64,000 nt of DNA, from contig OZ024740.1 in assembly GCA_964016885.1 (NCBI GenBank), positions 383,780,001-383,844,000 of the forward strand, in the 5' to 3' direction. The notes under the pieces were generated by a model. It saw nothing but the letters and a program-made list of their open reading frames with translations. It searched no databases and had not been told where the DNA came from. The DNA is from Eledone cirrhosa (taxonomy: Eukaryota). Position numbers and translations under genes: made by a program. Below are positions 1,627 to 62,945 of the stretch, piece by piece (position 1 is the stretch's first letter; every line of letters begins with the position of its first letter).

Positions 1627-2255
1627 TACAAGGGGCGACTGAATCTTTTTGAGCCTCACACAGAAAAGAAATTGTATGCAAATGAGATGTCTGTAGGAGC
1701 CAGCTTACATGGTCTAAATATTCTTATATTTCTTTTCCCTGATCCTTAAATTTCACGTCCTCAGTCGTTTCATAAATGGAGGAATTCCAGTATCAAGCAG
1801 TGAACAAGTATCTGTAATTGAAAGGCATGACAGCAGCTGAGATCCGTAAGAATATGCAACATACATAAGAGGACTATGCATCGCCATATGCCACTATCAA
1901 CTGCTGGGTAATGAATTCAAGTTTGGCAAGCAAGATGTCCAGAAACATGGTAGGCCATCAACATTGACCATACCAGAGAATATTGATCTTGTCCATGGGA
2001 TGGTAATGGAAGATCGACGACTATCATCTCGGCTGATAGCAAACAAGTTGGGCATGTACCAGGAGGAAACCAATAATATTCTGACAAACGAGCTTCGTTT
2101 GAGAAAGATGTGAGCACGCTTGGTTCCACTGCGTTTCAACATTTTTCCAAAAATTGGGAACAAGTTGAAGCAGATATTTACACTGTCGATTGTCAAGACG
2201 TGTGTCCATCACTACCAAACCGAAACAAAATAGCAGTCTAAACCGTGAAAACACT
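1627..2255 (+). mobile_element. Degenerate mariner/Tc1 transposon, 5' part
   Basis: TA+CAAGGGGCGACTGAA TIR-like start. Broken frames give GMTAAEIRKNM, GRPSTLTIPENIDLVHGMVMEDRRLSSRLIA and ARLVPL (WVPxxL-like); internal stops. Confidence 0.8.
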
Positions 2256-2432
2256 CATATATATATATATATTAGGATTGGTGCTCTGAAATAGCGATGT
2301 ATACATGAATGTATGTATAGTATATTTGGCAATATACTGTATGTTTAATTAAAAACATTTTGAAGACCTTGCGCTATTATTTTAAAGTAGTGACTATGTC
2401 ACTTACTTCTTTTTTCAACAAAGGAAGGAAGA

Positions 2433-2478
2433 TAAGCTGACAGATCTGTTTCACACTGTTGGTGTTCATCAGAGCTTA
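2433..2478 (-). ncRNA. Type I hammerhead ribozyme, intact core (family R)
   Basis: Minus strand: TAAGCT CTGATGA ACAC caaca GTGT GAAA CAG at CTG TC AGCTTA. Stem I 6 bp, stem II 4 bp, palindromic stem III, GUC site. Confidence 0.92.
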
Positions 2479-2701
2479 GCACTCGCCGAACTTTGCTGAA
2501 CATTTTAAAGACTGGATTCATATAGAATTCCAGTAATAATCAGGAACTGATTATACAGAGCGATTGCCGGTCCAGCAAAAATTGAAAATTAGGATTGGTG
2601 CTCTGAAATAGCGATGTATACATGAATGTATGTAAAGTATATTTGGCAATATACTGTATGTTTAATTAAAAAAATAATTCTTAGCAAAGGTCGGCGAGTG
2701 C

Positions 2702-2747
2702 TAGGCTCTGATTAACACCAACAGTGTGAAACAGATCTGTCAGCTTA
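2702..2747 (+). ncRNA. Hammerhead ribozyme copy, G8>T decayed (family R)
   Basis: TAGGCT CTGATTA ACAC caaca GTGT GAAA CAGATCTG TC AGCTTA. Confidence 0.75.
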
Positions 2748-3019
2748 TCTCCCTCCCTTCCTTTGTTGAAAAAAGAAATGTGACATAGTAAGTACTTTAA
2801 AATAATAGCGCATGGTCTTCAAAATGTTTTTAATTAAACATACAGTATATTACCAAATATACTATACATACATTCATGTATACATCGCTATTTCAGAGCA
2901 CCAATCCTAATTTTCAATCTCTGCTGGACTGGCATCACTCTGTATAATCAGTTCCTGATTATTACTGGAATTCTATAAGAATCCAGCCTCTATAATTTTC
3001 AGCAAAGTTCGGCGAGTGC

Positions 3020-3065
3020 TAAGCTCTGATGAACACCAACAGTGTGAAACAGATCTCTCAGCTTA
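3020..3065 (+). ncRNA. Hammerhead ribozyme copy (family R)
   Basis: TAAGCT CTGATGA ACAC caaca GTGT GAAA CAGATCTC TC AGCTTA; one stem III substitution. Confidence 0.85.
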
Positions 3066-3296
3066 TCTCCCTTTGTTTGTCGAAAAAAGAAGTACGTGAC
3101 ATAGTCACTACATTAAAATAATAGCGCAAGGTCTTCAAAATGTTTATAATTAAGCATACAGTATATTGCCAAATATACTATACGTATATTCATGTATACA
3201 TCGCTATTTCAGAGCACCAATCCTAATATATATATATGTATAAATTAATAAAAACAATGAATAAAAACAAAGAAATAGTTACTTATATTAAAAAAT

Positions 3297-3434
3297 TTAT
3301 CATTTTACGATCGTTTCTAGGATATATATATGTGTGTTGGTATGTATATCATATAGATCTATGTAAAAATGTTACAAACTATCAGGGGAAATATACATAC
3401 CTACACATATATATGCTGTCTTCAGAAATAATGA
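3297..3434 (-). ncRNA. Hammerhead ribozyme with long stem II (PLE 3' UTR, inverted copy)
   Basis: Reverse complement of the 4581-4718 motif: TCATTATTT CTGAAGA ... GAAA CGATCG TA AAATGATAA. Confidence 0.75.
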
Positions 3435-4580
3435 TATTTGTTTATTGAAAAAAACCAACAAAGATTTAATATAATAGGTCTGTTTGGGAACAGGTTTTGA
3501 ATTGACCAATAGAAAAGTAGTAAGTGGACAAGTTGATAGAATAGTAGTGGTAGAAATTTAAGTTAGGGGTAGAGGAATGCAGACATAAGTTTTGAATCGA
3601 AAGAATACTTTGAATGAAAAGATTACTTGGCTGAAAGAATTAATAATAATAGAAAAAAGAATATCGATTATAACCTGACCTGGAGTGTGCTCAAAAGGGC
3701 CACCCCTTATCAAAATAACGGATATGAGTGTAGATTATGTTCCCAGGAACCTTTTGAAATAATGAAATCTAAGGATATCCTATTAAATAAGTGACAAGCA
3801 TTAATTATATCGTGCAATCATAGAATTAGAAGAACTTTCAAATATTATAAACCTAATTAATATACACCTTACACTTATATTTTACAAACTATTATAATTA
3901 GTTTTTTAATTTAGTTAACCTATAATTAGTACTTTACTACTGAGAAATTCATAATTTTATTTCCCTTTTACAGTTCTCTTTTCCTAAAATTAATACCTAT
4001 AATTATACATATAAACTATTTTAATTTCCTGTTATGAATCTAAATTCCTTGTAGTCTATATATGTTTGTTATTTCTCACCAATACATTTATCCCCCCAAA
4101 AGTTTGTTTACTTCGTTTTTAACAACACTCTTTAATAACATCTAACTCTTATTTATCACATTTATATGAATTAATATAAATGTATCCCTATATGTATACC
4201 TATCAATTAAATTAATTTAATTTTTTGTTATAGATCTAAATTCCTTGTGTTTTAAATAAGATTGGTATTTCTCAGTAACAATTTTACCCTAAAACTTTAT
4301 TCTCCTTCGGCTTTAACATTAACATTATTCTTTAATAACATCAAATGTTCTTGTACCCTTCATCGGCTTGACCTCTTTTCATCCCCAAAGTATTCCTTTC
4401 ATTCAAAATATTCTTTCCATTCAAAACTTAAGTTTGCATTCCTCTACCCCTAAATTAAATTTCTACCACTACTATTCTATCAACTTGACCGCTTACTACT
4501 TTTCTATTGGTCAATTCAAAACCTGTTCCCAAACAGACCTATTATATAAATCTTTGTTGGTCTTTTTCAATAAACGAGTA

Positions 4581-4718
4581 TCATTATTTCTGAAGACAGC
4601 ATATATATGTGTAGGTATGTATATTTCCTCTGATAGTTTGTAACATTTTTACATAGATCTATATGATATACATACCAACACACACATATATATCCTAGAA
4701 ACGATCGTACAATGATGA
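4581..4718 (+). ncRNA. Hammerhead ribozyme with ~100-nt stem II (PLE 3' UTR)
   Basis: TCATTATTT CTGAAGA c AG c ATATATATGTGT...ACACATATATAT c CT a GAAA CGATCG TA CAATGATGA. Confidence 0.78.
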
Positions 4719-4900
4719 ATTTTTTAATATAAGGAACTGTTTCTTTGTTTATATTCATTGTTTTCATTAATTTATCTTGCCTCTGTTTTCCTGTGATTTT
4801 CATCAAAAAAAATGTTGAATACATCTCTTTTCATGATATTTGGATTACATTGAGTTCTTCATACGGATTGGACACTACCGTACATTTTAGTAGATTTATC

Positions 4901-4956
<56 letters not shown>

Positions 4957-4973
4957 ATATATATATATATATA

Positions 4974-5137
4974 GGAAAAGAGTTAGGACCCCGACCGGGT
5001 TCAGATCTAGCTGTCCAAACGGCCGGAGCTGAGCCGTCGGCGTCCTGACTCTTTTCCGTTTACTCACTCTTCTAACCTAACTATCGAGTACTCTGATGCG
5101 TTATAGTCCACCTGGTATCTTACCTTACCTTCTTTGT

Positions 5138-5138
<1 letters not shown>
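4974..5138 (+). mobile_element. Family E fold-back element in (TA)n
   Basis: GGAAAAGAGTTAGGACCCCGAC ... GTCGGCGTCCTGACTCTTTTCC plus an ~80-nt tail. Confidence 0.8.
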
Positions 5139-5172
<34 letters not shown>

Positions 5173-5632
5173 ATGTGTGTGTGTGTGTGCGTGTGTGTGC
5201 GTGTGTGTGTGTGTGTGTGAGTGTCTGTGTGTGTGCGTGTTTGTCCGCATAAAGCTATACGAGTAAATACATTTCTTTAACGCTTGACGGAGTAAGAAAA
5301 TAGTCTTTAGTTTCGGACACTAATCCTTTATCGAGCGATAGAACGGCAAATAAATGATGAAATAGAAAAACAGAGAGTGAGAAGTGGAATGAAATTGTTT
5401 TGGGGAAAACACGAATGTATTCATTCATCAGTATACATATATATATATATGTAAATGTATTTTTGTGTGCATATTCTGAGGTGAATGCCTGATTACGCCA
5501 TTATTTTACATATTCTCACACGCATGTTTATCTACGTTCATATTTGTTTCTATCAGTTTTTCATTCTTATTTTTTAGAGTTTCTCCTCTGTTATACTTCT
5601 CTCAATCTTGCAAGCTGTTTATTTAAATTTCC

Positions 5633-5795
5633 TGAGATTTTATTTGTTTCAAGTTTTGGTCTTCTTGCAGGCAATAATATATGTATTGTTGATCATTATA
5701 TTTGTATTTTAATTTTATCCGTAAATATATTTATTTCATTGTTGTATATATTTTATACCTACCTCACTACATATCTCATCTACATACACACTCAC

Positions 5796-5839
<44 letters not shown>

Positions 5840-6030
5840 TATATGTGTGTGCGTGTTGTGTGTGTGTACATAGAAATCCTCACATAAATATTGTATACTA
5901 TATAGCCAAACGGTTTTGTATATGCTTATGTATTTGTATAAGTCTTTGCGATTTCACATCTCTGTGATTGAATTGATTATTCTTGAAAACAACAATGAGT
6001 GCTTCGAACGGTGCGCCGCCTGTAACTGTA
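5633..6030 (+). repeat. Segment X, duplicated in inverted orientation at ~7605-8010
   Basis: Direct reverse-complement match, e.g. CTACCTCACTACATATCTCATCTAC / GTAGATGAGATATGTAGTGAGGTAG. Confidence 0.9.
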
Positions 6031-6044
6031 GATCCAGCTATCTA

Positions 6045-6079
<35 letters not shown>

Positions 6080-6208
6080 GAATGTATATATAGTGTATTT
6101 TTCAATACACTGTATGCTTAATTAAAAGCATTTCGAAGACCTTATTCTATTGTTTTAGAGTAGTGACAGTCTCACTTACTTTAAATTTTCAGTAAACAGG
6201 GGAGATAA

Positions 6209-6253
6209 AGCTGACAGAGCTATGTTTCGTACTGATTGGTACTTATCAAAGCC
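6209..6253 (-). ncRNA. Hammerhead ribozyme, U3:A8 core variant
   Basis: Minus strand: GGCT TTGATAA GTAC caatca GTAC GAAA CATAGCTCTG TC AGCT. Confidence 0.8.
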
Positions 6254-6688
6254 AAGTACTCCACCTGTTTGCTGAAAATCGTGAATGTTTGATTCTTATA
6301 GAATTTCTAGTAATAATCAGGAATTGATTATACAGAGCGGTTGCTGGTCAAGCAGAAAATTGAAAATTAGAATGTATATATAGTGTATTTTGCAATACAC
6401 TGTATGCTTAATTAAAAGCATTTCGAAGACCTTATGCTATTGTTTTAGAGTAGTGACAGTCTCACTTACTTTAAATTTTCAAAAACGAAATGCTTTTAAT
6501 TAAGCATACAGTGCACTGCAAAATACACTATATATACATTCATATATATATAGCTATTTCAGAGCACCAATTCTAATTTTCAATTTCTGCTTGACCGGCA
6601 ATCGCTCTGTATAATCAGTTCCTGATTATTACTAGAAATTCTATAAGAATCAAACATTCATGATTTTCAGCAAACAGGTGGAGTACTT

Positions 6689-6733
6689 GGCTTTAATAAG
6701 TACCAATCAGTACGAAACATAGCTCTGTCAGCT
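6689..6733 (+). ncRNA. Hammerhead U3:A8 variant, G5>A decayed
   Basis: GGCT TTAATAA GTAC caatca GTAC GAAA CATAGCTCTG TC AGCT. Confidence 0.65.
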
Positions 6734-6899
6734 TTATATCCCCTGTTTGCTGAAAATTTAAAGTAAGTGAGACTGTCACTACTCTAAAACAATAGCATAA
6801 GGTCTTCGAAATGCTTTTAATTAAGCATACAGTGTATTGCAATATATATATATATATATCGTATATAGATATCTATGTATATATATATATATATATATA

Positions 6900-7092
6900 G
6901 TTTTAATAGAAGAACTTCTACAGGACTAGAACTGTTTCATTCGCGAGAAAACATCAGGAAGCTTGCTGTTGATTTCTCACGAATAAAACAGTTCTAGTCC
7001 TGTAGAAACTCTTCTATTAAAACTGTTATACTCTGCTATGTATTGAGTATCTTACTTATTGTGGCTACCTCCGATTCAACCCGGAATAACTT
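6900..7092 (+). mobile_element. Family Y fold-back mini-element (second copy inverted at ~7300-7487)
   Basis: ~60-bp arms centred near 6962 plus a tail. Arm consensus CTGATGA T TTC tcgc GAA T GAAA C agttcta G TC is HHR-like. Confidence 0.7.
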
Positions 7093-7105
7093 ATATATAT
7101 ATATA

Positions 7106-7300
7106 TTAGAAAGTGAGGTTTTTTTTACAAAATAAAAAATAACCAAGGAGTGAAAATGTAAAGAAAAAAGATGAAGTCGAAAATGCAACTGGAGTCTTAT
7201 TTAAAAAAATATATATATATTTATTTGGTTCCTTTACCGGTTTCGCAGTTCTTCTGCTTTTCAAAAGTAGAGTTACGATGGAGGATCTGTGGTTTTTCTC
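7106..7300 (-). mobile_element. Family Z short HHR-bearing element (also 8011-8112 and 25813-26002)
   Basis: Shared ACTCCAGTTGCATTTTCGA and GAAACCGGTAAAGGAAC blocks; (TA)n flank. Confidence 0.75.
7232..7267 (-). ncRNA. Minimal hammerhead ribozyme, U3:A8 core (family Z)
   Basis: Minus strand: CTT TTGAAAA GCAG aagaa CTGC GAAA CCGG TA AAG; palindromic ACCGGT stem III. Confidence 0.78.
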
Positions 7301-7516
7301 CGGGTTGAATCGGAGGTAACCACAGTAAGTAAGGTACTCAATACACAGCAGAGTATAACAGTTTTAATAGAAGAGCTTCTACAGGACAAGGACTGTTTAA
7401 TTCGTGAGAAATCAACAGGAAGCTTCCTGATGTTTTCTCGCGAATGAAACAGTTCTAGTCCTGTACAAGTTCTTCTATTAAAACTATATATATATATATA
7501 CATAGATATCTATATA

Positions 7517-7576
<60 letters not shown>

Positions 7577-7827
7577 AGATAGATAGATAGATAGATAGAA
7601 TAAGTTATGTGTTAGAGGCGGCGCACCTTCTTGTTTTCGAGAATAAACAATTCAATCACAGAGATGTGACATCGCAAAGACTATACAATACATAAGCATA
7701 TACAAAACCATATTTTTATATACATACGTTTGGCTATATAGTATACAATATTTATGTCTGGATTTATATGTATATATATACACACATAGAACACGCACAC
7801 ACATATAACACACACACATATATATAA

Positions 7828-7865
<38 letters not shown>

Positions 7866-8010
7866 GAGATATGTAGTGAGGTAGGTATAAAATATATACA
7901 ACAATGAAATAAATATATTTACTGATCAAATTAAAATACAAATATAATGATCAACAATACATATATTATTGCCTGCAAGAACACCAAAACTTGAAACAAA
8001 TAAAATCTCA

Positions 8011-8046
8011 CTTTTGAAAAGCAGAAGAACTGCGAAACCAGTAAAG
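8011..8046 (+). ncRNA. Minimal hammerhead ribozyme, U3:A8 core (family Z, inverted copy)
   Basis: CTT TTGAAAA GCAG aagaa CTGC GAAA CCAG TA AAG. Confidence 0.72.
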
Positions 8047-8114
8047 GAACCAAATAATTATATATATATATTTTTTAAATATGACTCCAGTCGCATTTTC
8101 GATTTCATCTTATT

Positions 8115-8795
<681 letters not shown>

Positions 8796-8964
8796 GGAAC
8801 AAGTAAGACCCCGACGGCTGAGCGCAAGCCGTTTCAACGGCTAATTCCGGCTTGAGCTCAGCCGTCGGGGTCTTACTTGTTCCTATTACCCACTCTACTA
8901 CACTAAGTATTGAGTAGTTTGGTGCGTTATGATCCACCTTGTTGCTTACCACATTTCCTTCGTT
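8796..8964 (+). mobile_element. Family E fold-back element in (TA)n
   Basis: GGAACAAGTAAGACCCCGACGGCTGAG...CTCAGCCGTCGGGGTCTTACTTGTTCC plus tail. Confidence 0.85.
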
Positions 8965-8986
8965 ATATATATATATATATATATAT

Positions 8987-13214: not shown

Positions 13215-13414
13215 NNNNNNNNNNNNNNNNNNNNNNNNNNNNNNNNNNNNNNNNNNNNNNNNNNNNNNNNNNNNNNNNNNNNNNNNNNNNNNNNNNNNNN
13301 NNNNNNNNNNNNNNNNNNNNNNNNNNNNNNNNNNNNNNNNNNNNNNNNNNNNNNNNNNNNNNNNNNNNNNNNNNNNNNNNNNNNNNNNNNNNNNNNNNNN
13401 NNNNNNNNNNNNNN
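13215..13414. other. Assembly gap (200 N)
   Basis: Run of N. Confidence 1.
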
Positions 13415-17931: not shown

Positions 17932-18004
<73 letters not shown>

Positions 18005-18006
<2 letters not shown>

Positions 18007-18204
18007 AAAAGAGTCAGGACCCCATCGACTGAGCTCAGGCCGTTTCGATAGCTATACCCGAACAGTTCGGATCTAGCTGTCGAAGCGGCCAGAGATCAGC
18101 CGTTGGAGTCCTGACTAGGTTCTTATTACCCACTCTACTACCCTAAGTATCGAGTACTCTGGTGCGTTATAGTTCACCTTGTTCCTTACCACAATTCCTT
18201 CGTT
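18005..18204 (+). mobile_element. Family E fold-back element in (TA)n
   Basis: Homology to the 8796 and 39616 copies. Confidence 0.8.
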
Positions 18205-18213
18205 ATATATATT

Positions 18214-18253
<40 letters not shown>

Positions 18254-36526: not shown

Positions 36527-36683
36527 AAAGAATAGAGGTGTAACACACAAGTTATTATATATTGGTAAACGGAATAGAAAATGCTGACAAATTGTTCACA
36601 GTTGAAAAATGGTTTAATTAGGAATAAAAGAGTATTAGTGATTGTATGGGTTAGTATTCAGTTGTGGTTTTAAGTTTTTAAGT

Positions 36684-36720
36684 TTTTACCGGTTGCGCAT
36701 TTCTAAATGCTTTTCAAAAA
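36684..36720 (-). ncRNA. Minimal HHR-like motif, U3:A8 core, GAAA>GCAA
   Basis: Minus strand: TTT TTGAAAA GCATTT ag AAATGC GCAA CCGG TA AAA. Confidence 0.6.
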
Positions 36721-36909
36721 TAATTTTGAGATAGAGTGTCCGTGCTGTTTGCTCTGATCTGATTAGTTTTGGGAATTCTACCTGTTTTTATGTTAAAAAA
36801 GTGGCTCCAGCAAAAATTCTTGGTCAAAACAATTTTGATTGGTCGGTAGAGGTCATGTGAATAAAAAATTGTTTTGCGCCAAGATTGAGAAATGACTCTT
36901 TCACAACAA

Positions 36910-36956
<47 letters not shown>

Positions 36957-37506
36957 GTGTGTGTGTGTGTGTGTGTGTATAGCAGAGTAATTTGTGGTGG
37001 CAGGGATGGTCAGTAAGAATGTGTCTGAAAGCAATGGGGGGTATTTTAGCATGTCAAAAGATATTTTTCAGCTTTTGTCTTATACGGAGTAGTGCGTGTG
37101 TGTGTTTGTGTGTGTATATAAGTCTCTTTGTATGTTGATGTACGCGTGTGTATGTGTTTGTGTATATATATATGTGTGTGGGGGGGGACCAGTATTTGTT
37201 CCCCCCTGGTAAAAGGGTGTACTTTATTCGATTTTTTCAGTAAAATCGGTTCTCTTAATAGAACATCAAAAGTCTTAACAATAAAAGGTGTGAAATGATA
37301 TTCACTATATATATATACACATACATATATTCACTACATATATATATATATATACATAGATATATACATACATATATATGCACATATATTTCTTTGTATT
37401 GCACCATAGAGCATGTGTGTTTACGTGTGTCATTGTGTTTATATGTGGGTAGAGATGTGTGCTGATGTAGGTATGTATGTTGACGTGTGTATGTTGTGGG
37501 TTCGTC

Positions 37507-38088
37507 TTAGGGAGAAGTGTTTAGACGGGGTCCGTATTTGTTAATGAAGTAAGATTCCTTGCTGATGCGCTGGATGTGGGTGGCATTATCTGTAAATTTG
37601 TAGAGGGGAAAGATTCTGAAGTTGGGATGATTTCGGGCGGCACAGGTATCAATGCCTTCACTCAGTGGTATTTTCCTGTATTCCCGTATTTTAATTTGGG
37701 ATCTATGGACAGTCATGCGTTGGTGGAGGCTGTTTTTGGTCTGGCCTATGTATTGTTCTCGACAACCTGAACAAGTTAATACATATATTAGATTTTCCGA
37801 TGCACATGTGAAATTGTGTTTTAATATAAAACGTTGTCCATCTTTGACATAGAATTCCGAACCCTCTATTAGGTTGATGCAAATGCCACAGTTGGGTCTA
37901 TCGCATTTTTTTACTGTGGGTTTCGTTGTTGTGGTTGGCAGTACTTTGGCATGTGTTAACATGTTTTTCATTGACTTGGATTGTCTTTTGCTCTTTATGA
38001 TATCGTGTGTTCGTAGAATTTGGTTCATTCTATGGTCCTTTTTCAATACAGGGATGTTCTGCAGGATGGTGTCAAAGGCCTCATTGTT
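37507..38088 (-). pseudogene. PLE C-terminal fragment: Cys linker + GIY-YIG endonuclease (Neptune/Nematis-like)
   Basis: KKCDRPNCGIC, FTCASENLIYVLTCSGCREQYIGQT..QRMTVHR, R..KESYFI..LN. Confidence 0.9.
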
Positions 38089-38701
38089 GATAATGCCACC
38101 CACACCCAGCGCATCAGCAAGGAATCTTACTTCATTAACAAATACGGACCCCGTTTAACACTTCTCCCTAAGACGAACCCACAACATACACACGTCAACA
38201 TACATACCTACATCAGCACACATCTCTACCCACATATAAACACAATGACACACGTAAACACACATGCTCTATGGTGCAATACAAAGAAATATATGTGCAT
38301 ATATATGTATGTATATATCTATGTATATATATATATGTAGTGAATATATGTATATGTATATATATATGGTGAATATCATTTCACACCTTTTATTGTTATG
38401 ACTTTTGATGTTCTATTAAGAGAACCGATTTTACTGAAAAAATCGAATAATGTACACCATTTTACCAGGGGGGGAAAAAATACTGGTCCACCCACACACA
38501 CACACACACACACATATATACACAAACACATACACACGCGTACATCAACATACAAAGAGACTTATATACACACACACACACACACACGCACTTCTCCGTA
38601 TAAGACTAAAGCTGAAAAATATATTTTGACATGCTAAAATATCCTCCATTGCTTTCAGACACATTCTTACTGACCATCCCTGCCACCACAAATTACTCTG
38701 C

Positions 38702-38744
<43 letters not shown>

Positions 38745-39008
38745 ATCTTTTGACATGCTAAAATACCCACCATTGCTTTCAGACACATTCTTACTGACCA
38801 TCCCTGCCACCACGAATCACTCTGCTATACACACACACACACACACATACACATGCACACACACACACACTTATCTTAATAGCCATTTGACACACATCGC
38901 TGCTGGCCATTGTCGCAGCATCGAACACCTTACTACTACTACTACACACACACACACACAAACACATACACACACACACACACATACACACATACACACA
39001 CACACAAA

Positions 39009-39085
<77 letters not shown>

Positions 39086-39413
39086 ACACACACACATATT
39101 TGTTGTGAAAGAGTCATTTCTCAATCTTGACGCAAAACCAATTTTTTATTCACATGACCTCTACCGACCAATCAAAATTGTGTTGACCACGAATTTTTGC
39201 TAGAGCCACTTTTTGAACATAAAAACATTCTTGGCGCAACATCAACTTTTTACATTAACATGTCCTCTACCGACCAATCAAAATTGTTTTGACCACAAGA
39301 ATTTTTGCAACACAAAAATAACGCTGGAGCCACTTTTTTAACATAAAAACAGGTAGAATTCCCAAAACTAATCAGATCAGAGCAAACAGCACGGACACTC
39401 TATCTCAAAATTA

Positions 39414-39450
39414 TTTTTGAAAAGCATTTAGAAATGCGCAACCGGTAAAA
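39414..39450 (+). ncRNA. Minimal HHR-like motif, inverted copy of 36684-36720
   Basis: TTT TTGAAAA GCATTT ag AAATGC GCAA CCGG TA AAA. Confidence 0.6.
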
Positions 39451-39576
39451 ACTTTAAAACTTAAAACCACAACTGAATACTAACCCATACAATCACTAAT
39501 ACTCTTGTATTCCTAATTAAATCATTTTTCAACTGTGAACAATTTGTCAGCATTTTCTATTCCGTTTACCAATATA

Positions 39577-40303
<727 letters not shown>

Positions 40304-42688: not shown

Positions 42689-42725
<37 letters not shown>

Positions 42726-42729
<4 letters not shown>

Positions 42730-43066
42730 GTAATCTGAGTTTTTCGAATATTATTAATAACATTCGATTCGTTTGCAATTATGCAAACAAGCATCAATTG
42801 TATAGCCATGTCAGTAGAATGAACACTTCATTCTTGCTCTTGTGTTGGCATTTAAACAGAACTGTAGACACTAATTGCAGAAACATTAGTGTCTGCAATT
42901 CTGTTTACATACCAACACAAGAGCAAGAATGAAGTGTTCATTCTACTGACATGGCTATACAATTGAGGCTCGTTTGCATAATTGCAAACGAATCGAATGT
43001 TATTAATAATATTCGAAAAACTCAGATTACATTTATTGTATTCAGCCATGTAGAGCGAAATTTTCT

Positions 43067-62134: not shown

Positions 62135-62880
62135 AATGTGTCTGTGTATGTATGTGTACGTGTGTATGAATATAGGTGCGTAGGTGTGTGTGTGTATGCC
62201 TTCTTCTAAGGTAACAAAAATGTCAAAGTGCGCACAAAACTAGTACATCGATCGATATATGCAAATATTCTCACACAATGAATACGATATATGAAAAACA
62301 TGCTTCCATAACTAAATATGCGTCGATGTAACAATGTGGTTTTTCTGCGTGTGTATGTGAGCATGTATGTGGGTTGGTGTGTTAGTATGTCTCATTACAA
62401 GTGAATGTCGTTCTGTATAGATGTATTTCTCTTTGTTTGATTCTGTGAAAACAAATCTAGTGAATAAAACACAGGTCAAGCATGTACATATAAACACATA
62501 TAATATTCATTCTTACTTAACCTTTGTTATTCAGTTACTTCGAGCACATCGGGTGTTATTCTTGGCAGGCGTTTCAATATATGCGTATAAGCACATACAT
62601 ATGTACATACACAACCACACACACACACACACACACGCGCAAAAACACAAAGACAAGCGCACACACACACAAAGGCAAGCACACACAGGCACACACACAT
62701 AGCAAGATAGATATCTAGATAAAGAGGAAGAAGTGTGGGAGCCGGGAAATGCTAGATCGATACAGTAGTATATAATCATATATTATTTGTAAATTTGCAT
62801 GTGAATGCATAACATTCTAAAAACTGCTACTCTTACAAAATGCCTGTCAGTATATATACATATATATATATATATAGATA

Positions 62881-62945
62881 GGAACGAGTAGGACCCCGAC
62901 GGCTGAGCTCAAGCCATTTCGACGGCTAATTCTGGACTAAATGAA
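62881..62945 (-). mobile_element. Family E single arm
   Basis: GGAACGAGTAGGACCCCGACGGCTGAGCTCAAGCCATTTCGACGGCTAATTCTGGAC. Confidence 0.75.

Follow-up and report, generated by a model that had tools for sequence, protein, structure and literature searches.

An inverted copy of flanking host DNA, 712 nucleotides (nt) long, lies exactly where the two arms of a Penelope-like element (PLE) insertion meet in a 64,000-nt stretch of the Eledone cirrhosa genome. The stretch, referred to here as the window, is contig OZ024740.1:383,780,001-383,844,000 of assembly GCA_964016885.1, read on the forward strand of a 3.0-Gb genome, and all coordinates given without a contig or locus are positions within it. 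On the plus strand, the unique flank (X, 5633-6079) is followed by a retrozyme-like insertion (R, 6080-6842), the duplicated part of an older short insertion (Y; 6847-7085 falls in the duplicated segment), the tail-bearing arm of the PLE (Z, 7092-7300), the inverted flank copy (Y'X', 7299-8010), an inverted partial arm of the element (Z', 8003-8116), and a (TA)n array of ~670 nt (8117-8786), which is the target microsatellite where it continues beyond the insertion unit. The best reading of this arrangement, to which we give roughly an even chance, is that a 5'-truncated PLE inserted into (TA)n to the right of Y and that the 712-nt inverted copy was made during that insertion.

The flank copy and its junctions

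An original prediction made from the sequence had proposed the order X-[R]-Y-Z, Y'-X', Z', and this order is recovered both by self-BLAST and by a separate repeat search of the window, which recovered these same arms (I2, I3, I11). The inverted self-BLAST matches pair 5633-6092 with 8010-7528 (82.4%, E 4e-112), 6842-7085 with 7536-7299 (93.4%, E 6e-101), and 7164-7274 with 8116-8003 (92.1%, E 6e-41). The arrangement is confirmed as real, with every piece in place far past chance. The Z pieces do enclose a reverse copy of the upstream flank that lacks R, as had been claimed, and that copy is now placed at 7299-8010. They are also inverted relative to each other; their limits, first given as 7106-7300 and 8011-8112, are refined to 7092-7106..7300 and 8003-8116.

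We searched the genome with X (5560-6035) and obtained 118 matches. Only two of them are long, namely, the query itself and, at 85%, the inverted copy nearby (query positions 74-436); the other 116 are at most 114 nt long and fall within the (TA)n(TG)n tract or at query positions 428-472. X is therefore single-copy in the genome except for the local inverted copy. Moreover, 29 other Z loci match the window only within 7092-7300, and X is found at none of them (0/29), so that Y'-X' is not a constant internal part of Z; had it been one, this would have counted against the original prediction by the test named there.

Y (6870-7095, plus strand; repeat I23) belongs to a high-copy family of short palindrome-plus-tail insertions with 3090 first-look candidates in the genome. 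It consists of an inverted arm (6899-6961) and a sense arm with a 3' tail (6962-7095), and we compared it with an alignment of 28 family copies. All 28 have the last 10 nt of the family, ATAACTTATA. Y' (7299-7519, minus strand) is an inverted copy of Y without these 10 nt and passes directly into X' (7554-8010, minus strand), which aligns in reverse complement to X; Y' is thus part of the duplication and not a separate insertion. Copy 1 is contiguous with unique upstream DNA and carries the complete Y 3' end ATAACTTATA, whereas copy 2 lacks it and is flanked on both sides by element pieces. These features identify copy 2 as derived and rule it out as the original. What lies exactly at the Z/Z' junction, Y'X', is a derived duplicate of single-copy DNA in inverted orientation.

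Outside microsatellites, the two flank copies differ by substitutions at 3/152 positions in the first part of X, 11/149 in the second part, and 10/218 in Y, for a total of 24/519 (4.6%), in addition to indels of 8, 13-14, and 18 nt. When the differences in Y were polarized on the 28 family copies, five proved to be derived in Y and four in Y', with one ambiguous. Each copy carries derived changes of its own, indicating that both are genuine, separately evolving sequences. As a test for error-prone copying, these counts show no asymmetry between Y and Y' (5 versus 4). Derived changes in Z and Z' number 1 and about 6, respectively, at sites too few for this difference to have any meaning.

The first junction (Z/Y', 7298-7300) reads ...GGTTTTTCTC/CGGGTTG..., with a 2-nt overlap, TC, and the second (X'/Z', about 8010) reads ...AAATCTCA/CTTTTGAAAAG..., with an overlap of ~1 nt. 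The flank copy begins at 7085, the first GA (7084-7085) upstream of the ATAACTTA(TA)7 that separates Y from the start of Z, placing the start of the copy 7 nt plus (TA)7 from Z. As in a snap-back, the inverted copy is of DNA near the priming site, lies at the 5' end of the new complementary DNA (cDNA), and is joined to it through short microhomology.

Z and Z' as arms of one insertion

A 24-mer from Z has 12,684 exact matches in the genome. At one locus, L048, Z continues on the element sense strand (the reverse complement of Z) from the 3' untranslated region (UTR) after an open reading frame (ORF). This ORF (L048 3590-4888, minus strand) matches GIY-YIG at 30.8 bits (E 3.6e-7; cut-off, 22.6) and RVT_1 at 21.7 bits, below the 29.6 cut-off, with a YLDD motif; frameshifts lie upstream in the L048 copy. 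In 12 more loci (L041-L046, L101-L106), the sequence past 7300 is collinear with the L048 3' UTR. Taken together, these loci identify Z as the last ~220 nt of a PLE (~209 nt in the window), in element sense on the minus strand, with its 3' end at 7092-7106 beside (TA)n. The reverse transcriptase and GIY-YIG matches of L048, together with the arm pairs described below, agree with the earlier assignment of Z as PLE-type. The outer end of Z carries the exact (TA)n-TTAG 18-mer of the window in 24 of the 29 loci, a preference for microsatellite targets, and Y, R, and Z each adjoin (TA)n in the window.

At about a dozen of the 29 loci, Z faces an inverted partial arm 4-12 nt away, and the centers of these pairs read ...TTTTTCTCACAT, 0-5 nt, ATGTGAGAAAAA.... 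The usual gap between arms in this family is 0-12 nt, as against 712 nt of inverted flank in the window. The outer end of the partial arm corresponds to element positions 7156-7169 in nearly all pairs, and to 7164 in the window, where Z' (8003-8116, plus strand) is the reverse complement of 7164-7274. Like the other partial arms, Z' lacks the terminal 67 nt carried by the tail-bearing arm; without the 3' terminus of the element, it is no independent insertion. Both belong to one PLE-type insertion unit, Z as its tail-bearing arm and Z' as its inverted partial arm. This also rules out an insertion of Z into a preexisting X-Y/Y'-X' palindrome followed by an independent Z', since Z' lacks the element 3' end and abuts the exact end of X'. 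Relative to the usual 5' end of the family, Z' is short by 26-31 nt at its inner end and Z by 4-5 nt, and the two arms differ at about 5/105 positions.

No Rfam match reached the gathering score in L048, L046, L043, L041, L015, and L008, although minimal PLE hammerheads are known to escape standard models, as reported in PMC4209133. In the L048 endonuclease, GIY and YIG enclose two cysteines when read by eye, and the linker has the form CX4CX2C. The Hydra clade of PLEs also targets (TA)n (Craig et al. 2021, PMC8557442), yet its combination of no CCHH motif and a CxCX5C linker does not agree with the L048 ORF as read by eye, and we do not assign the element to this clade.

The Z family contains subfamilies. 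A variant, ...CAAAAGGT, has 6,919 exact matches, more than half of the number for the shared 24-mer, and the Z copy in the window is of the ...CAAAAGTA type. At L015 (C17:1263836-1267053), positions 709-1715 hold an inverted arm, 640 nt of the PLE 5' region (L048 6560-5926), and directly after it the last ~220 nt of the element. We considered the 640-nt spacer as a second case of a flank copy and ruled it out, as it is PLE 5' region and L015 is an internally deleted element. The short Z family may descend from a deleted element like L015, whose breakpoint coincides with the usual 5' end of short Z copies.

Census of arm pairs

The original prediction had called for a genome-wide count of PLE insertions that enclose an inverted copy of their own flank. 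We ran this count on an unbiased sample, namely, the first 100 places of each of three 24-mer searches, paired by hand. It yielded, for C1:0-69 Mb, 59 pairs whose arms face each other at a distance of up to 5.5 kb. The arms are too close for any insert in 42 pairs. The remaining 17 are long, and 14 of these were examined, leaving out those near C1:36.49, 52.45, and 64.58 Mb. In 12 of the 14, only PLE sequence lies between the arms; it belongs to arms that are longer or of unequal length, to a full-length element, or to copies nested in one another. No inverted flank copy was found among the 59 pairs (14 of 17 long ones examined), and the event is therefore rare in the Z family and no regular outcome of insertion. 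Facing pairs tighter than the canonical spacing are common (49, 74, 77, 82, 93, 95, and 95, versus about 106-111), and the center of the L020 arm pair is asymmetric.

One of the 14, L106 (C1:65073000-65082999), contains a flank copy of a different kind. Here, 132 nt of unique flank are present twice in direct orientation and at 100% identity (1958-2089 and 3359-3490 of the locus). On one side of the copy lies a tail-bearing PLE arm with a truncated 5' end (2120-3351), and on the other a full-length PLE (3490-7755) begins with its 5' end. The source of the copy is the flank adjoining the tail-bearing arm, and the copied stretch starts immediately upstream of the (CT)n(TA)n target. The PLE arms at L106 are only 97.3% alike, so that either the arms differed from the outset or the flank was copied after they had formed.

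We also looked for other unique inverted duplications across 94 loci (335 kb) after masking sequence shared between loci and found only two small pairs (L047, L067), neither at an arm junction. L047 (C1:10044000-10052700), the last of the 14 long pairs, was ruled out as an arm pair, as it consists of two independent full Z copies. Between these copies, at 3026-4192 of the locus, lies a 388-amino-acid ORF with no Pfam match.

Origin of the flank copy

If the copy was made during insertion, a top-strand 3'-OH in (TA)n would have primed cDNA synthesis on the element RNA, producing Z and ending 4-5 nt short of the usual 5' end. The bottom strand of the left flank would have been cut and resected, leaving the top strand of X-Y single-stranded. 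The cDNA tip (...TC-3') could then have paired with GA at 7084-7085, the first such dinucleotide upstream of the microsatellite, and been extended 712 nt along X-Y to 5633. The end of this copy would have been joined, with ~1 nt of overlap, to a second arm. Priming of that arm would have come from the opposite end of the target, at the internal site that is fixed in the family, and its synthesis would have stopped at element position 7274. Afterwards, both copies would have diverged by ~4.6%, and the (TA)~17 of copy 1 probably received R at a later time.

Several observations favor this order of events. The divergence between Z and Z' (about 5/105) and that between the flank copies (24/519) are the same within error, and the outer end of Z' is the normal one for the family. 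The landing site is also informative. Read from the sequence, Z itself contains more than ten nearer GA sites; that these were bypassed and the tip landed just past the microsatellite fits a cDNA still covered by RNA. Together with the flank copy at L106 and the experimental precedents in R2 and L1 discussed below, these points make an insertion-coupled origin likely, though not proven. The earlier proposal that integration of Z involved template switching onto the neighboring flank, duplicating about 700 bp, therefore stands as the best reading, while it is not separable, on the present data, from a later break at the palindrome center.

Other considerations weigh against it. Nothing dates the flank copy to the insertion itself, and the divergence between Z and Z' rests on ~105 nt. 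A 210-nt cDNA:RNA hybrid needs to bend back. The census found no second inverted flank copy, and the copy at L106 is direct and 100% identical between arms that are 97.3% alike, so it may reflect another process or another age. If the tight pairs are center deletions, breaks at palindrome centers would be frequent, and this would feed the two-step alternative considered next. Finally, none of the reads seen spans 7299 or 8010.

In the two-step alternative, an ordinary insertion of Z facing Z' was followed by a break at the center of the near-perfect palindrome with 140-nt arms and by fold-back copying: after resection, the left 3' tail would have folded onto Y through 2 nt of microhomology, host polymerases would have copied 712 nt, and end joining to an eroded Z' would have sealed the break. 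This sequence of events yields exactly the same DNA. The loss of 26-31 nt from the inner end of Z' and of 4-5 nt from Z is expected after a center break, and revision of arm-pair centers appears common, given the many pairs below canonical spacing and the asymmetric center of L020. Break repair by fold-back with inverted duplication is, in addition, an established process (work cited within PMC11702581). Its fit is nearly as good as that of an insertion-coupled origin, and it is the main rival, though we rate it as less likely. Resected, single-stranded Z would have offered the tail its many nearer GA sites, and a landing just past the microsatellite is not expected. Z and Z' are also not measurably older than the flank copies, and the direct flank copy at L106 is beyond what a center break with fold-back can make.

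If the copy was instead made during insertion, the window and L106 may share a cause. We suggest, tentatively and with somewhat less confidence than we place in the reading of the window itself, that PLE integration leaves the flank on the primary-priming side single-stranded and open to copying by either growing cDNA end, giving inverted (window) or direct (L106) duplications of host DNA, 0.1-0.7 kb long, at the arm junction. If true, the host DNA known from between the terminal repeats of PLEs would have a visible source, and such duplications would record in nature the second-strand steps of PLE integration, which so far have been shown by no assay.

R and its empty site

R is 763 nt long, shares the forward-plus-inverted layout of the PLE insertion, and consists of a forward part (6080-6481) with 1.4 units, that is, one 290-nt unit plus 112 nt of a second, and an inverted part (6486-6842) with 1.25 units (repeats D11, I1, I5, I7). 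The family has a 290-nt unit with fixed ends and 1770 first-look candidates that are 95-98% alike and often in tandem, with array spacing of about 320 nt at several places. In copy 1 the site reads (CT)n(TA)8-R-(TA)8-CGTATATAG, the two (TA)8 runs (6063-6078 and 6843-6858) being halves of a split target microsatellite. The reverse complement of copy 2 reads (CT)n(TA)17-CGTATATAG, and the sequence on either side of the R site is identical in both copies. The plain, R-free (TA)n site that the original prediction had placed at ~7520-7600 is thus present as an unbroken (TA)17 at 7520-7553. The duplicate preserves the pre-insertion target of R; measured against it, the insertion neither added nor removed anything detectable apart from about one TA unit.

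These observations indicate that R very probably inserted after the duplication. Alternatively, R may already have been present in X-Y when the flank was copied and may have been skipped by slippage between the (TA)8 runs or later deleted from copy 2. As an inverted dimer with 270-nt arms and identical (TA)8 flanks, R is a classic slippage substrate, and its arms differ by ~5%, no less than the flank copies do. However, (TA)8 plus (TA)8 versus (TA)17 is the outcome of simple insertion into the tract; the 95-98% identity of R to many dispersed copies points to a young family; and the two halves of R end at different unit positions, so that they were not necessarily identical at birth. We therefore regard the prior presence of R as improbable, and the claim that R postdates Z as likely to stand, qualified by bypass or loss of this hairpin-forming sequence.

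R was first described as a retrozyme. At the Rfam gathering score, no family matches anywhere in the window. At the level of E-values, the only hammerhead match is to HH9 (6191-6266, minus strand; E 0.6), whose gathering score of 52 is well above the 18.7 bits obtained, and the many microRNA-like matches at this level are microsatellite hairpins. No Rfam hammerhead at E<=0.01 was found in 8 of 19 R-family loci (L052-L070). By hand, we delineated a candidate motif with a long helix I, a core TTGATAA, a helix II GTAC-N6-GTAC, GAAAC, a helix III, and GTC. The hammerhead-like core is kept in 22 of 22 family units examined, and the motif fold is stable and comprises helices I and II (z = -3.95). 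A second such motif in the inverted arm of this R copy (about 6690-6705) carries a further core change, TTTAATAA. The core TTGATAA is the U3-A8 covariant of CUGAUGA that has been described in PLE hammerheads (Cervera and de la Pena 2014, PMC4209133). Given the 290-nt noncoding tandem unit and the conserved core on one side and the Rfam score on the other, "retrozyme-like" seems a fair name for R, whereas "retrozyme" would go further than these data.

Sequencing evidence and other insertions in the window

The read data are short-read contigs of one sample (0.28-0.49 of words), in which contig holes and popped variants prove nothing either way. None of the contigs listed bridges 7299 or 8010, and none at 97% likeness lies on 7596-7867, holes being uninformative in both cases. 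A 594-nt contig on X' 7873-8010 (3 differences) is the copy-1 contig, which runs into copy 1's own upstream flank. An assembly artifact, in which the inverted copy is a misplaced allele or a chimeric join, could draw on the missing bridge, on the assembly problems that such PLE structures cause (Craig et al., PMC8557442), and on the scaffolded state of the window, which has a 200-N gap at 13215-13414, yet it is very improbable: substitutions at 4.6% of positions set the copies apart, as do several indels of 8-18 nt and the presence of the 763-nt R in one of them; Y and Y' have their own derived changes relative to the 28 family copies (5 and 4); a strand switch inside a Z/Z' palindrome would give Z-Z'-Y'-X' and not the observed Z-Y'-X'-Z'; and neither junction has an overlap that an assembler could use for a join.

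Several further insertions occur in the window. A short hairpin-plus-tail family flanked by (TA)n is represented in direct orientation on either side of the region studied (4975-5154 and 8787-8980), and these two copies look like independent insertions into one microsatellite-rich stretch; more copies lie at 1429-1545, 17996-18220, 39600-39827, and 62872-62932. At 36553-39582, a nested inverted structure of ~3 kb (arms 36553-36887/39582-39226 and 36940-37590/38742-38089) encloses a minus-strand segment (38088-37519) with 54% protein identity to the endonuclease part of the L048 PLE; it represents another PLE family, in a copy that is 5'-truncated and accompanied by an inverted arm. Palindromic inserts with arms of 390-460 nt (94-96%) are found at 2257-2675/3241-2824, 3240-3628/4775-4388, 41476-41930/42606-42153, and 42724-43036, the first of which (from 2257) contains diverged R-like units (77-79%).

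Discussion

How PLEs build their inverted ends is unsettled, and an in vitro PLE system has been called for (Craig et al. 2021, PMC8557442). A flank copy lying exactly where two arms join is a fossil left by an intermediate of integration or of repair. Its start beside the priming site, the 1-2-nt overlaps, and the fixed end of the second arm constrain models of this process, setting two-ended priming with an exposed flank against simple self-priming. The locus also shows one route by which such elements duplicate host DNA. The DNA copied here is only repeat-rich intergenic sequence, the event is rare in the Z family, and by-products of this kind are known for R2 and L1, so its weight is mechanistic, not functional.

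The R family shares with animal non-LTR retrozymes (PMC7229834; Li et al. 2026, bioRxiv 10.64898/2026.07.22.740005) a noncoding tandem unit, whose 290 nt fall within the ~170-400 nt reported for them. As read from the motif, R also resembles the hammerheads of retrozymes and PLEs described in PMC7229834 and PMC4209133 in its putative type-I-like three-way junction, 4-bp helix II, G10.1-C11.1 pair, 2-bp helix III, loop with palindromic AGCU, and U3-A8 core. It differs from retrozymes in scoring under the Rfam threshold and in the further core change of one of the two motifs read in this copy.

PLE insertions have been described as a 5'-truncated copy with an adjacent inverted 5'-truncated copy, a one-sided tail, and microsatellite targets (PMC8557442; PMC3846280). 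The Z family conforms to canonical PLEs in the reverse transcriptase and C-terminal GIY-YIG domain of its full-length relative, its near-palindromic inverted arm pairs, its one-sided extension, and its insertion into (TA)n. The capture of host DNA between terminal repeats is likewise reported for PLEs, as in the spacers of Pen1_Av, and self-priming has been proposed (PMC3846280). However, the DNA between the arms here is an inverted copy of the adjacent flank, with its source still visible; the one-sided extension is 67 nt versus 30-40 nt in canonical PLEs; and Rfam found no hammerhead in the full-length relative at the gathering score.

A parallel comes from the snap-back junctions of R2, where synthesis is primed by the 3' end of the cDNA with either the cDNA itself or ribosomal DNA in the vicinity as template (PMC11371274). 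The 5' snap-back junctions reported there for PRINT likewise place antisense or inverted sequence beside the insert. Those events, however, involve another class of retroelement and were seen experimentally in human cells; in the window, moreover, the copy extends over 712 nt, and beyond it comes a second inverted arm derived from the element.

Twin priming of L1 is said to go back to Ostertag and Kazazian in 2001. Together with target-site inverted duplications of L1, it is treated in PMC11702581, where, as proposed here, both target ends prime on RNA, junctions show microhomology, and processing of endonuclease-made ends leads to local inverted duplications. L1 inversions lack element sequence duplicated in both arms, whereas PLE arms overlap. 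In a full-text literature search, we found no description of flank copies at PLE junctions. The kind of by-product seen in the window is thus known for R2 and L1, and what is new for PLEs is the long copy with a second arm beyond it.

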